From: Candidatus Saccharimonadales bacterium
GTDB taxonomy: Bacteria > Patescibacteriota > Saccharimonadia > Saccharimonadales > UBA4665
Length of the DNA: 31,739 bases
Reading direction: 5' to 3'
Assembly (NCBI GenBank): GCA_050011495.1
Contig: JBEKIY010000002.1
Location: 1 to 31,739, forward strand
The notes beneath the pieces were generated by a model that was given only the letters and a program-made list of their open reading frames with translations, did not search any database and was not told the origin of the DNA. Of this stretch, positions 5,088 to 30,444 are shown in pieces (position 1 is the first letter of the stretch; every line of letters starts with the position of its first letter). Made by a program: the position numbers and the translations under genes.

Positions 5088-5164
5088 GGGCTTGTAGCTC
5101 AGCTGGTTAGAGCGCGTCACTGATAATGACGAGGTCCCAGGTTCAAGTCCTGGCAAGCCCACCA
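5088..5164 (+). tRNA. tRNA-Ile(GAU), CCA encoded
   Basis: Acceptor GGGCTTG/CAAGCCC, anticodon loop CT-GAT-AA, T-loop GTTCAAG, A73, 3' CCA. Confidence 0.97.
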
Positions 5165-5405: not shown

Positions 5406-6199
5406 GTAGGTCGACGTTTGAGTTTAGGCAGCGAGACTATTTAGGGAGTAGTTTCTAGCATAAACTCAAGCTACCAGAATGTGCTAACGACTAATTGGGA
5501 TGCTCGGGCTTTGTAACTTAAAAATTTGGAAGTAAATAATTTTAAGACAAACGGCTAAATTATTGGTAATTACCAATAACTAGTCAATTGCACATCGTAA
5601 AAAGTTACTCAAGCGCACACAAAGGATGCCTTGACGTGAGATACCGATGAAGGACGTGAGGAGCTGCGATAAGCTTCGGGGAGTTGCTAACTAAACTTTG
5701 ATCCGAAGATGTCCGAATGGGGAAACCTTAATAGAGTCATGTCTATTAGCGCTTGTCTGAATACATAGGACGAGATAGCGGTAAGCGGGAGAACTGAAAC
5801 ATCTTAGTACCCCGAGGAATAGAAAGTAAATAACGATTCCGGTAGTAGTGGCGAGCGAATCCGGAACAGCCCAAACTTTTTAGGTTTCCGTTTGGCAACA
5901 AACGGATAAGTTGGTAGACGAATATCTAAAAGGGGTTGTGACACTACAAACAACCAGTACGGAGCCCTGAGCTTGCTCAGATTTCCGTATTGGAAGTACG
6001 ATCTACCATTATCGTACATAAGGTCTCAATTAATAGCGTTGCGAGCAGAAGCTTTTGGAAAGAAGCGCCAAAGACAGTGATAGCCTGGTATGCAAAGTTT
6101 CGCTAACCTTATATTTGTTTTTGTCGAGTAAATCGGGACACGTGAAACCCTGATTGAATCTGGGGGGTCCACCCTCCAAGGCTAAATATATCTTACGAT

Positions 6200-8315: not shown

Positions 8316-9068
8316 AAGTTACATTGCGTTCTACTACTGAAAAGTAGTAAAATACGAGTGTACATCGCACTTTTCGTATTAATACCTGACTAATATCGGT
8401 GAAACCCTACAAAAATTCGAACATTTTTGAGGGTAATACCGAGGGAAGACATATATGTCTGACGAAGAAAAAGCCTACATAGCTGGATTTCTTGATGGCG
8501 ATGGATCAATAATGGCACAACTTATAAAACGAAAGGGATATAAGTTTGGGTACCAGATCCGTGTCAGTATAGTTTTCTATCAAAAGACTATACATCAAGA
8601 TCATCTTCTTTGGCTAAAGAAGCAGCTTGGCTATGGTTATGTTCGGATACGCAATGACGGTATGAGTGAATATACTATAGTTGGCTTAAGTGAAGTAGAA
8701 CATGTGTTATCTACTCTGAATTCCTTTCTTCGACTTAAAAAAGTTCTTGCACGTAAAGTATTGTTGCTCATAAAGCAGCATCCTTCTCAGCGTAAAGTTA
8801 ATGTTGCGCAATTTATTAGACTAAGTAAATTAGTTGATGAAACAGCTAAATTTAACTATACAAAGAAACGCAAAAACACTAGCACTGAAGTAATTGAATT
8901 TTTATTAAGTAAAAATATATATGTCCCCGTAGAGACTGAAGGATAGTGTAGCTACTAACCAGAGATAGAATTCTTAACTAAAGATCTATCATACGTCAGC
9001 CCCTCATTACACACATAGTAATAGGGTGAAGATATAGTCCGTGCCACTAGTAATAGTGGATTTACACG
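8316..9068 (+). mobile_element. Group I intron (753 nt) at 23S position equivalent to E. coli 2593, IA-like
   Basis: Exons rejoin as AGAACGT|CGTGAGACAG. 5' exon ends in U paired to G of IGS GCGTTCT (8326-8332); last base is G9068. P3 CTGAC/GTCAG, P4 TCGGT/ACCGA, P7 GAGACTG with AAGATATAGTCC, P9 CCACTA-GTAA-TAGTGG. Extra helices between P7 and P3' suggest subgroup IA. Confidence 0.95.
8455..8946 (+). CDS. Single-motif LAGLIDADG homing endonuclease (I-CreI/I-MsoI-like), 163 aa
   Basis: YIAGFLDGDGSI motif, FYQKT, GYGYVR and C-terminal KKRKNTS; lies in the intron P6 loop and its 3' end runs through P6'/P7. Confidence 0.93.
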   Translation: MSDEEKAYIAGFLDGDGSIMAQLIKRKGYKFGYQIRVSIVFYQKTIHQDHLLWLKKQLGYGYVRIRNDGMSEYTIVGLSEVEHVLSTLNSFLRLKKVLARKVLLLIKQHPSQRKVNVAQFIRLSKLVDETAKFNYTKKRKNTSTEVIEFLLSKNIYVPVETEG

Positions 9069-27076: not shown

Positions 27077-27343
27077 ATGAAACTGGTAATTCTTTATAGA
27101 CCGAAATCTGAGCATGCAACACTAGTCGAATCTTTTAGCGAGAGAGTTCTCAGTGCCATGCCCAATGCTTCAATTGAGAATATTGACGTTGATAGCCCAG
27201 AGGGGATCGCTAAACTTGAAGTTTATGGCATACTGCAATTCCCGGCAGTGTTAATAGTAGCTGATAATGGTTCGTTGGTTGATATCTGGCTGGGGGATGC
27301 ATTGCCATCTGTTGATCAAGTAGTTGATAGCTTAAGACGATAA
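27077..27343 (+). CDS. Small thioredoxin/glutaredoxin-fold-like protein lacking cysteines
   Basis: beta-alpha-beta pattern, IDVDS.EG...YGILQFPAVLIV (cis-Pro-like FP); no CxxC. Confidence 0.55.
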   Translation: MKLVILYRPKSEHATLVESFSERVLSAMPNASIENIDVDSPEGIAKLEVYGILQFPAVLIVADNGSLVDIWLGDALPSVDQVVDSLRR

Positions 27344-27421
27344 TAGGATTGTTGTAAAACATAAAATGCTTTATAGTTACATCTTGTAACAACTTAAGAA
27401 ATGCGCTTTATCTTGAGAAAA

Positions 27422-27616
27422 GGATAAATTAGCGGTAATCAACCGTGAAGCAGCGAGAAGAAAAGTTTTTCTAAACTTAGTAGAACTCGACGGAAGCCCG
27501 TATAACGTTGAAAGTAAGCGCTTATTGAGATCATCTCTCAAAGGAAGTTGGATGGTACCGTCCTAAAAATAATATAATAGGATTCCAACAGATAATAGAG
27601 ATGATTTTTTATTTTT
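27422..27616 (+). ncRNA. T-box riboswitch (Ile, AUC specifier) in the ileS leader
   Basis: Antiterminator GTTGGA-TGGTACC-GTCCTA...TAGGAT-TCCAAC; Stem II with AGUA/GAA S-turn; Stem III TTGAGA/TCTCAA; AAUCA loop. Confidence 0.9.
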
Positions 27617-27633: not shown

Positions 27634-30444
27634 ATGAAATTTTATAAAGGCCAGCGACGATCCTTTAACCAATATGAACCAGATCTTGTAAATTATTGGC
27701 GCGAAAATAAGATATTTGAAAAATCAGTTAATCAAAGACCAGCTGATAATAGTTTTGTATTTTATGATGGTCCACCATTTATTACAGGGGTTCCGCATTA
27801 CGGAACTTTGTTAAGCAGTATTGTTAAAGATGCTGTACCGCGTTACTGGACAATGAAAGGGAAAAGAGTTGAAAGGGTATGGGGTTGGGATTGCCATGGG
27901 TTGCCGGCAGAAGTATATACCGAGCAAAAATTAGGCATAAAAGATAAGCGTGAAGTATATAAAATTGGACTTGAAAAGTATGTTATCGCCTGCCGAGAAA
28001 ATATGGTCCAAACAGGTTCAGTCTGGGAAAAAACTGTTGATCAAATTGGTCGTTGGGTCAATTTTAAGGGCGCCTATAAGACTATGGACAATAACTATAT
28101 GGAATCAGTCTGGTGGGCATTCAAAAAGTTATATGACGACGGTAAAATCTACGAAGGCGAGCGGGTTTTACTATATTGTACACGCGATGCTACGCCGTTA
28201 TCTAAAGCGGAAATAGCCCAAGATAATTCATACCAAGAAGTTACGGACCCGTCAGTCTATGTCAAATTTAAACTGGTTAATCGTCCCAATACCTATATGC
28301 TGGCTTGGACCACTACACCGTGGACGCTATTGGCAAATACCGCATTGGCGATAAATGAAAAGTTAGAATACGCTGAAGTTAAAATCAACGATGAAGTGTT
28401 TATTGTGGCGGCAGATTTAGTTGAAAAAGTACTCTCCAACAACAATAATAACGTAGTACCTTTTACTATAATAAAAAAATATAGTGGCAAAGTACTTCTT
28501 AAATTACACTATGAACCATTGTTTGAAAATCGTGGTAAAAATGCACACATAATTTATAATGCCGACTATGTTAGCCTAGAAGAAGGAACTGGAATCGTCC
28601 ATATCGCGCCAGCTTACGGCGAGGAAGACTATGAATTAGCAAAAAAGTATGAAATACCGGTTGTATCGGATGTTGATGACAATGGTTTTTATAATGAAGG
28701 TGAATGGAAGGACCAGAATATCTGGGAAGTTAATAAACTAATCGCAAAAACTCTACATGAGCGTAACATTGTTTGGAAGATTGATTATGTACAACACAGC
28801 TATCCTCACTGTTATCGTTGTGGTACTAGGTTGATGTATCGGGCCCACCCGAGTTGGTTTGTAAACATCAATCAACAACGCGAACTAATGTTAGAGCAAA
28901 ACAGTAAAATTAATTGGTTCCCAACGCATTTTAAAGAAGGCAGATTTACTAGTACATTGCTAACAGCACCTGATTGGAATATTTCTCGAGATCGTTTTTG
29001 GGCGACGCCATTACCAGTTTGGAGGGGAACAGATGAAAACGGTAAAGAGATTATTAAAGTTATAGGCAGTTATGATGAACTAGAACAGTTGCATCGGATA
29101 GATAAAGTTATGGACTGTTGGTTTGAATCAGGATCCATGCCATTCGCCCAATTTCATTATCCATTTGAGAATCAACAGAAATTCGAGGAAAATTTTCCTG
29201 GTGACTTTATAGCTGAACACGTTGGTCAAATAAGGGGATGGTTCTATTCATTACATGCAATATCAGTAGGGTTATTTGCCAAACCGGCATTTCACAACGT
29301 AATTGTTACCGGAACGATAATGGGCAACGATGGTCGAAAAATGAGTAAGTCATATGGGAACTTTACAGATCCTGAAAAGATAATAGGTCTTTACGGGGCT
29401 GATTCGTTGCGATATTTACTACTTTCTTCGCCAGTAATGAATGGTGAAGATTTTATAGTGCTTGATAAGGATGTCATTGATGTTTCGCGTCGGCTCAATA
29501 TGATCTGGAATATGTATGATTTCTTTACACTCTATGCATCGGTTGATAATTGGGAGACGGATAAAGTATTGTCTGACCCCTATGATAAAGTCACCAATTT
29601 ACTAGACAGATGGATAATTTCAAGGTTACATCAACTTATCCAAGATATTGATGGCGCAATGCAGAGGTATGACTTTCCTCAAGCGTTAAAGCCGGTCATG
29701 CTATTTATTGACGATGCCTCAAACTGGTATGTTAGACGAAGCCGCAAACGTTTTTGGAAAAGCACTAATGACACCGATAAGGACGATGCCTACATGACCC
29801 TATATTACGTGCTAGTACAATTAGCGGTTGTAATGGCGCCATTTACGCCATTCCTCTCAGAAGAACTTTATCGCCTGCTAACTGGATCGGAATCTGTCCA
29901 TCTGTGTAATTGGCCACAAGCAGGGCATATAAATGACACATTAATCAGTGAAATGGCTATGACGCGAGAACTAATTACTCAAGGTCTTGCTCAAAGAGCC
30001 GATAAACAGATAAAGGTCCGCCAGCCACTATCCAAGGCAACAATTACAATTCCATCGCAGTTTGTTGAGTTTAAAAAGAATGAATTATCCTCGGTAATAG
30101 CAGACGAATTAAACATAAAAGAAATAGCCACTAAGATCGGTAAAAATGCTTCAATTTCAATTGACACTAAATTAACAGATGCTTTGGTTAGCGAAGGGCT
30201 AGCCAGAGAAATTATCAGACATGTTCAACAAACCCGTAAAGAAGCTGGTTTTAATGTAGAAGATAGAATTACACTAATGATCGACAGCAACAATGCTAAA
30301 ATAATGGATTCTCTAGCTGAATATAGAGATCTAATCATGCAAGAAACCCTAGCAGCAACTATAAGTAACAAAAAATCAGACGAAATGTTTAGTAAATCAG
30401 TAGAAATTAACAGTAGTAACGTTAACATTAATATTACTAAATAA
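27634..30444 (+). CDS. ileS: Isoleucyl-tRNA synthetase, type 2 (IleRS2)
   Basis: FYDGPPF, GWDCHGLP, WTTTPWTL, GTGIVH, DWNISRDRFW, DCWFESGSMP, QIRGWFY and KMSKS; no C-terminal Zn finger; SD GAGGAG. Confidence 0.96.
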   Translation: MKFYKGQRRSFNQYEPDLVNYWRENKIFEKSVNQRPADNSFVFYDGPPFITGVPHYGTLLSSIVKDAVPRYWTMKGKRVERVWGWDCHGLPAEVYTEQKLGIKDKREVYKIGLEKYVIACRENMVQTGSVWEKTVDQIGRWVNFKGAYKTMDNNYMESVWWAFKKLYDDGKIYEGERVLLYCTRDATPLSKAEIAQDNSYQEVTDPSVYVKFKLVNRPNTYMLAWTTTPWTLLANTALAINEKLEYAEVKINDEVFIVAADLVEKVLSNNNNNVVPFTIIKKYSGKVLLKLHYEPLFENRGKNAHIIYNADYVSLEEGTGIVHIAPAYGEEDYELAKKYEIPVVSDVDDNGFYNEGEWKDQNIWEVNKLIAKTLHERNIVWKIDYVQHSYPHCYRCGTRLMYRAHPSWFVNINQQRELMLEQNSKINWFPTHFKEGRFTSTLLTAPDWNISRDRFWATPLPVWRGTDENGKEIIKVIGSYDELEQLHRIDKVMDCWFESGSMPFAQFHYPFENQQKFEENFPGDFIAEHVGQIRGWFYSLHAISVGLFAKPAFHNVIVTGTIMGNDGRKMSKSYGNFTDPEKIIGLYGADSLRYLLLSSPVMNGEDFIVLDKDVIDVSRRLNMIWNMYDFFTLYASVDNWETDKVLSDPYDKVTNLLDRWIISRLHQLIQDIDGAMQRYDFPQALKPVMLFIDDASNWYVRRSRKRFWKSTNDTDKDDAYMTLYYVLVQLAVVMAPFTPFLSEELYRLLTGSESVHLCNWPQAGHINDTLISEMAMTRELITQGLAQRADKQIKVRQPLSKATITIPSQFVEFKKNELSSVIADELNIKEIATKIGKNASISIDTKLTDALVSEGLAREIIRHVQQTRKEAGFNVEDRITLMIDSNNAKIMDSLAEYRDLIMQETLAATISNKKSDEMFSKSVEINSSNVNINITK

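Follow-up and report, generated by a model that had tools for sequence, protein, structure and literature searches.

T-boxes are the textbook case of an RNA-RNA riboswitch and a target for antibiotics. In the classical members of the class (RF00230; tyrS and glyQS of B. subtilis, glyQ of G. kaustophilus) a long Stem I with a K-turn, a specifier internal loop, an AG bulge and a distal loop precedes an antiterminator whose 3' half is contested by the terminator, and the discriminator that reads the tRNA end comprises the RRRxG string, Stem III, the AA motif and a G-U pair at the base of helix A2 (PMC7583486). In reviews, PMC7583486 among them, the ultrashort Stem I is a feature of translational ileS leaders found mostly in Actinobacteria, whose ultrashort and short forms were reported by Sherwood, Grundy and Henkin in 2015 (as cited in PMC7583486), and transcriptional T-boxes are held generally to need a long Stem I (PMC7583486). 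[quoted passage not shown] The leader analyzed here, which precedes ileS in a saccharibacterial genome, shares this layout with the actinobacterial leaders, its S-turn and IIB pseudoknot being candidates. It carries the published discriminator motif and has in common with the classical T-boxes the 7-nt bulge and an apparent intrinsic terminator ending in a U-tract as well as, by inference, the logic of tRNA-dependent antitermination. It differs from the actinobacterial type in that its putative terminator, which ends in a T-run, takes its 5' strand from Stem III, helix A1 would never be unpaired and the Shine-Dalgarno (SD) sequence is left free, and it differs from the classical type in that this terminator would enclose the antiterminator instead of competing with its 3' half and in that Stem I measures 15 nt. 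The organism also belongs to another phylum and its IleRS does not appear to be of actinobacterial descent. A literature search returned no paper on T-boxes in Saccharibacteria, the candidate phyla radiation (CPR) or Patescibacteria, the original articles of 2008 and 2015 being the place where they might be mentioned, and as far as we could find such terminator wiring is undescribed for T-boxes. We consider it probable that the element is an ileS T-box for tRNA-Ile(GAU) acting through attenuation by a nested terminator switched at Stem III, and that it is ancestral in Saccharibacteria within a compact family spread throughout the CPR.

The regulated gene lies on the plus strand at 27634-30444 of the window, by which we mean the whole stretch of 31,739 nucleotides analyzed, and is preceded by the SD AAGAGGAG at 27622-29 (plus strand). 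It encodes a protein of 936 amino acids with the Pfam domains tRNA-synt_1, Anticodon_1 and DUF5915. Comparison with PDB proteins gave 590-667 bits for the bacterial entries of 1032 amino acids (8C8U and relatives), for T. thermophilus 1ILE and for eukaryotic cytoplasmic IleRS, all of which we take to belong to type 2, and 240-308 bits for IleRS of the S. aureus type. These scores and the DUF5915 C-terminus confirm a type-2 enzyme, the preliminary description of this DNA having named the gene as IleRS2. The gene for the presumed ligand, tRNA-Ile(GAU), is located in the rRNA operon (5088-5164, plus strand; ARAGORN and Rfam) and has A73 and a DNA-encoded CCA. Further on, the 23S rRNA match shows inserted stretches of tens to about 100 nt around 5885-6030, and an open reading frame (ORF) for a protein of 163 amino acids with a LAGLIDADG homing-endonuclease domain (8455-8946, plus strand; Pfam E-value 8.6e-10) lies within the 1.1 kb that separate the 23S match, ending at 8378, from the 5S rRNA (9505).

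The leader lies in the 290 bp that separate ileS from a small ORF (27077-27343); as a whole it spans 27385-27616 on the plus strand, the strand of every element given below. Reading of the sequence identifies the full set of T-box parts between 27432 and 27589. Stem I consists of 4 bp, GCGG/CCGU (27432-35/27443-46), closed by the 7-nt loop UAAUCAA, where the specifier AUC (27438-27440) occupies the apex and is followed by the purine A27441. Stem II (27454-27489) has a proximal helix CGAG/CUCG and a distal hairpin AGUUU/AAACU, and the strands AAGAAA (27458-63) and AGUAGAA (27479-85) match the S-turn by sequence motif. Next come Stem IIA, ACGG/CCGU (27490-27501), with an F-box-like CCGUAU, the feature extending in all over 27490-27509, and a candidate IIB pseudoknot in which AGC (27495-97) would pair with GUU (27507-09), amounting to only 3 bp in the window. 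The 5' half of the discriminator is the purine string AAGCG (27516-20, an RRRxG motif); it is followed by Stem III (27521-27544), with a core of UUGAGA/UCUCAA (27525-41), and by the AA motif 3' of it (27545-46). Helix A1, GUUGGA/UCCAAC (27547-52/27584-89), and helix A2, GUCCUA/UAGGAU (27560-65/27578-83), flank the T-box bulge UGGUACC (27553-59), and the base pair of A2 is G27560-U27583. The UGGU of the bulge complements the terminal ACCA of tRNA-Ile(GAU), and AUC matches its anticodon GAU. Each part named in the preliminary description is accordingly present where it had been placed, and only its end of the element at 27590 has to be moved, the expression platform continuing to 27616.

A BLASTN search with the leader returned copies from 14 of 60 relatives, and these lie upstream of ileS in every case where the contig shows the neighborhood. 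A covariance model (R1) built from 14 leader copies of relatives matched 129 of the 151 sampled genomes of the order, representing at least 71 families, and at 43 of 45 relatives' loci the leader stands upstream of ileS. When 45 leaders were realigned, 94.7% of the pair cells held standard pairs compared with 34-45% when the partners were slid, and compensatory changes were seen in 29 of the 33 pairs; the alignments used for pair counting were fitted to the model structures, so that the counts lean toward them, and the slid controls and the raw sequences agree with the result. This is far more than chance would produce, and judging from sequence comparison we regard the leader as a genuine T-box riboswitch of a stripped-down type.

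The individual helices contribute unequally to this picture. In Stem I all four pairs covary and every cell is paired; its loop has 7 nt in every leader, most commonly CUAUCAA, which resembles an anticodon loop, and ATC is invariant at loop positions 3-5 (45/45). The proximal helix of Stem II likewise covaries in 4/4 pairs (98.9% paired), and the letters of the S-turn motif are invariant or nearly so in the leader alignment. Two of the four pairs of Stem IIA are invariant and its outermost pair forms in only 15 of 45 leaders. Across the 45 leaders, pairing between the IIB loop and the sequence downstream came to 3.76 against 3.13 for permuted partners, a value that none of 500 permutations reached, and it is weak in the genus of the window. 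After realignment with a second model Stem III showed compensatory changes in 7 of 9 pairs, with 88-93% of cells paired, and its hairpin is predicted in 43 of the 45 leaders. A1 is paired in 99.6% and A2 in 93.3% of cells, 10 of their 12 pairs covarying, and the bulge reads TGGTACC in 41/45 leaders. At its base A2 has G-U in 26 of the 45 leaders and G-C in 8, and 8 more have some other standard pair. An ultrashort Stem I displaying an apical AUC, and a set of downstream helices with a UGGU bulge fitted to tRNA-Ile(GAU), had both been proposed from the sequence of the window; the 4-bp stem and the constant ATC confirm the former, and the covarying helices and the ACCA end of the tRNA the latter. 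Covariation between the bulge and the discriminator base of the tRNA was uninformative or mildly contrary: one relative has UGGCACC, and its assembly yielded no tRNA-Ile(GAU) for comparison. In the actinobacterium Ferrithrix thermotolerans the ileS bulge is UGGC, yet its tRNA-Ile(GAU) has A73, a mismatch at a position that usually covaries.

There is no apparent room for a long Stem I in this leader. A promoter-like site at 27349-27377, composed of TTGTTG (27349-54), a 17-nt spacer and TATAGT (27372-77), would place the start of transcription near 27384. A consensus promoter scanner run on the window did not include this site in its output, and both boxes are conserved in the two genomes of the same genus. 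In 28 relatives, similar sigma-70-like boxes (a TTG-type -35, 17 nt, then a -10 of TATAGT, TATAAT or TACAAT) end 15-66 nt before Stem I, the median being about 35. Because the boxes are so near to Stem I, the specifier would lie only some 30-55 nt into the transcript, which is too near for an arm with distal T-loops; a longer classical Stem I folding from upstream sequence, a finding that the preliminary description had named as refuting its reading, is thus not in evidence. Minimum free energy (MFE) folds of the upstream sequence are noisy with regard to this question, and we relied on promoter positions and covariation instead. Directly 5' of Stem I the MFE fold contains a hairpin, UUUAUCUU/AGGAUAAA (27407-27428), with compensatory variants in the genomes of the same genus and in several relatives; it is absent from many other relatives, which carry AAAUCCGUUA at that place.

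The expression platform departs from those of both kinds of described T-box. The sequence AUCAUCUCU (27530-38), which is the loop of Stem III together with its 3' strand, can pair with AGAGAUGAU (27597-27605), enclosing A1 and A2, and the helix is followed by a T-run (T6 at 27605-10, A, T5 at 27612-16), the whole nested element covering 27530-27616. Since 27530-38 is common to both structures, the nested helix and Stem III are mutually exclusive. The nested hairpin is the MFE structure of the full leader, with A1, the bulge and A2 intact inside it. All nine pairs of the nested helix covary among the 45 leaders (93.1% paired), and in every one of them at least four consecutive T come directly after it. 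An RNA cut off just short of the 3' strand folds into Stem III and A1/A2, and on addition of that strand it flips to the nested hairpin, the energy gained being 4.3 kcal/mol in the window and 7.6 kcal/mol as the family median. A crude classifier assigned the nested layout to 39 of 45 leaders of the order and to 21 of 51 other CPR leaders. One relative has the classical layout in its place, and a few leaders, such as L052 and, from elsewhere in the CPR, L051, possess the nested helix and no obvious Stem III hairpin. The only helix adjoining the T-run uses nucleotides of Stem III and leaves A1/A2 untouched; reading of the window leader downstream of A1 revealed no complement of its 3' strand, so that neither a terminator nor a sequestrator exclusive with A1 was found there, and the SD at 27622-29 is outside every conserved helix and is not sequestered. 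On these comparisons and folding predictions the nested helix with its T-run seems to be a transcription terminator, of a form unlike textbook ones, because its base helix is AU-rich (3 G-C of 9 pairs) and closes a structured insert of 58 nt. A simple terminator scan, which permits loops of 3-8 nt only, found no terminator.

The exclusion of Stem III by the nested helix, the covariation, the T-run, the flip of the fold and the free SD are the reasons why we read the output as attenuation of transcription. Under the mechanism that we propose, the anticodon of tRNA-Ile(GAU) would pair with AUC, displayed in the manner of an anticodon loop on the 4-bp Stem I, and the contact would be buttressed by the S-turn of Stem II and by Stem IIA/B, a platform for the tRNA elbow being absent; the uncharged ACCA end would then pair with UGGU of the A1/A2 bulge. 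Stem III would fold first during transcription. With uncharged tRNA-Ile docked, Stem III could stay stacked in the discriminator, 27530-38 would be unavailable to invasion by the downstream strand, and polymerase would continue into ileS. If the tRNA were missing or charged, a loose Stem III would give way to the more stable nested helix, and transcription would end at the T-run. Stem III is reported to be essential if the 3' end of the tRNA is to be bound, and to stack in the discriminator, an antiterminator lacking it binding tRNA poorly (PMC7583486), and with charged tRNA it shifts away from the antisequestrator (PMC12647780). It is because of these findings that uncharged tRNA would be expected to keep Stem III closed in the leader of the window, and they support the inferred step by which bound tRNA would bring about antitermination.

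Two other readings of the output deserve consideration. The nested hairpin could terminate transcription with Stem III playing no part as the switch, uncharged tRNA bound to the bulge either distorting the hairpin or hindering closure of the base helix or the action of polymerase. A1, the bulge and A2 are indeed intact in both folds and persist in the OFF form, the sequence giving no proof that tRNA cannot bind it, and leaders such as L052 and L051 do without an obvious Stem III hairpin. We nevertheless find this version unlikely, given that 43/45 leaders preserve a covarying Stem III, which overlaps the terminator strand in each of them, and that the antiterminator by itself binds tRNA poorly once Stem III is missing (PMC7583486). 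It is more improbable still that the T-box is real but its helix and T-run are no efficient terminator, the control being exerted on translation or on the stability of the mRNA, for instance if the long hairpin influenced the loading of ribosomes at the SD 17 nt downstream or the access of RNase, or through a Rho-like factor. What lends this some plausibility is the weak AU-rich base helix with its long insert, the negative terminator scan and the use of SD sequestration by some CPR lineages (family f106 and L059), to which one must oppose a covarying helix that is immediately abutted by a T-run in 45 out of 45 leaders, the position of the SD outside all conserved pairings, and the presence in three relatives of an extra ORF between leader and ileS, an arrangement suited to transcriptional control and not to control at the level of the SD. 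These three ORFs, which lie between the terminator and ileS, are about 130-280 codons long, and one of them is methyltransferase-like by eye; the leader there would govern a two-gene operon. Attenuation switched at Stem III remains the reading that we prefer.

The compact design extends well beyond the order. R1 matched 46 of 145 genomes from the rest of the phylum, where leaders of this design stand upstream of ileS, valS, aspS and thrS and of a few hydrolase genes. In the CPR loci that were fetched, the specifiers in the apical loop fit the synthetase downstream (AUC for ileS, GUC for valS, AAC or GAC for aspS), and leaders with AUC also precede a second, divergent type of ileS. These compact CPR T-boxes are like the window leader in their matches to R1, in their apical-loop specifiers and in the many nested terminators among them; they differ from it in that other members have other amino acid specificities and in that, outside the order, some use classical terminators and a few (f106, L059) sequester the SD. 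The f106 and L059 leaders, four in number, are high-GC ileS leaders that combine an ultrashort Stem I with the absence of a T-run, and in them the SD, GCGAGG, is complementary to the A1 3' strand, CCUCGC, as in the translational layout of Actinobacteria. Five aspS leaders carry AAC (Asn) in place of GAC, as might be expected if a non-discriminating AspRS system were to sense tRNA-Asn. Within the order itself, five genomes have a leader like that of the window (R1 score, 89-140 bits) in front of an IleRS that is about 38-40% identical to that of the window and belongs to a separate deep clade. At these loci it seems that the synthetase was replaced behind a leader that was kept, or else that two old paralogues were sorted differently.

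The preliminary description had taken the element for a T-box class not expected in the CPR and possibly taken over with IleRS2 from the lineage of an actinobacterial host, and among its checks had named a survey of CPR ileS leaders and a joint phylogeny of leader and IleRS. The survey of leaders and trees of IleRS now speak against the import of a Mycobacterium-like ileS T-box working in the same way. The occurrence of the leader in 129/151 genomes of the order and of the compact design in 46/145 others of the phylum, before several aminoacyl-tRNA synthetase (aaRS) genes, is hard to reconcile with a class foreign to these bacteria. When named genomes were scanned with an alignment of CPR IleRS, 80 type-2 IleRS loci from many phyla were obtained, and several CPR genomes as well as Acidimicrobiia, for instance Ferrithrix thermotolerans, proved to have leaders of the same architecture before ileS. 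Trees were inferred from the N-terminal 500 residues, half of the protein, using FastTree (126 rows) and IQ-TREE in quick mode (67 rows), the Actinomycetota rows being mostly Acidimicrobiia plus four other genomes. The IleRS of the window fell in a clade of Saccharibacteria, nested together with seven CPR/DPANN rows (SH-aLRT 99), while Actinomycetota were placed elsewhere. An AU test, in which the IleRS group had been defined after the first tree was seen, rejected a clade of Saccharibacteria plus Actinomycetota (delta lnL 255; p-AU 2.9e-5), so that a descent of leader and gene shared with actinobacterial ileS was not recovered. Identity between the IleRS of the window and those of Actinomycetota was 36-44%, no higher than with other phyla.

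What made a transfer attractive is that reviews place the ultrashort Stem I mostly in Actinobacteria, that the gene is a type-2 IleRS and that five Actinomycetota ileS leaders, that of Ferrithrix among them, share the whole architecture (21-41 bits with R1). The fetched Acidimicrobiia leaders have the layout of the window leader, although, being translational, they lack a T-run and sequester the SD by pairing it with the 3' strand of A1. The source of the DNA also fits poorly with the scenario: it is peat, and the DNA is present in peat and wetland metagenomes. A survey of Actinomycetota with R1 matched 9 of 151 genomes, a figure that gives no estimate of prevalence because R1 is AT-rich and includes the terminator. 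Taking all this together, we regard acquisition from an actinobacterial host lineage as very improbable, and within the limits of the tree it is not supported. By these comparisons the compact architecture is homologous to that of the actinobacterial ileS leaders, not by recent transfer, and the compact T-box looks old in the CPR.

If the reading given here is right, the leader joins an ultrashort decoding arm to a terminator and the switch has moved from helix A1 to Stem III, which would constitute a second route by which the sensing of aminoacylation is coupled to termination. It would also offer a natural minimal system in which to test how fast recruitment through the anticodon alone can be, tiny genomes in which Rfam annotation reports no riboswitch would turn out to control aaRS genes by one, and a supposed case of gene transfer from host to epibiont would be removed. 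On a wider scale, and with slightly less than even confidence, we suggest that minimal T-boxes form a large family in the CPR that has escaped annotation, whose members sense tRNA co-transcriptionally with no elbow platform, use Stem III as the switch and build the terminator around an A1/bulge/A2 unit that is always folded, a platform logic that is, as far as we could find, undescribed and goes against the rule of the long Stem I; the compact form might then be ancestral in the CPR and Actinomycetota, as opposed to a reduction that arose late in Actinobacteria.

At the gathering threshold (93 bits) the Rfam scan gave no T-box match in the window. With a relaxed threshold RF00230 scored 13.3 bits (E-value about 1) in an alignment that runs from the first to the last position of the model, with 86 Stem I positions deleted and 9 nt in their place. 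A short-stem leader from Acidimicrobiia is likewise under the cut-off (49.3 bits against 93), and for this reason we ascribe the low score to a limit of the model: RF00230 is one that requires a long Stem I. Scanning the window's own genome for the discriminator motif returned the ileS leader as the only strong-scoring match. Upstream of thrS in the same genome, on a contig outside the window (C31, about 1400-1708), we observed a second compact T-box-like leader, located through its gene only, the motif scan having given no strong score there; it shows a bulge UGGAACC between helices of the CCGG/CCCGA type, followed by GACGCGU...ACGCGUC and T6.
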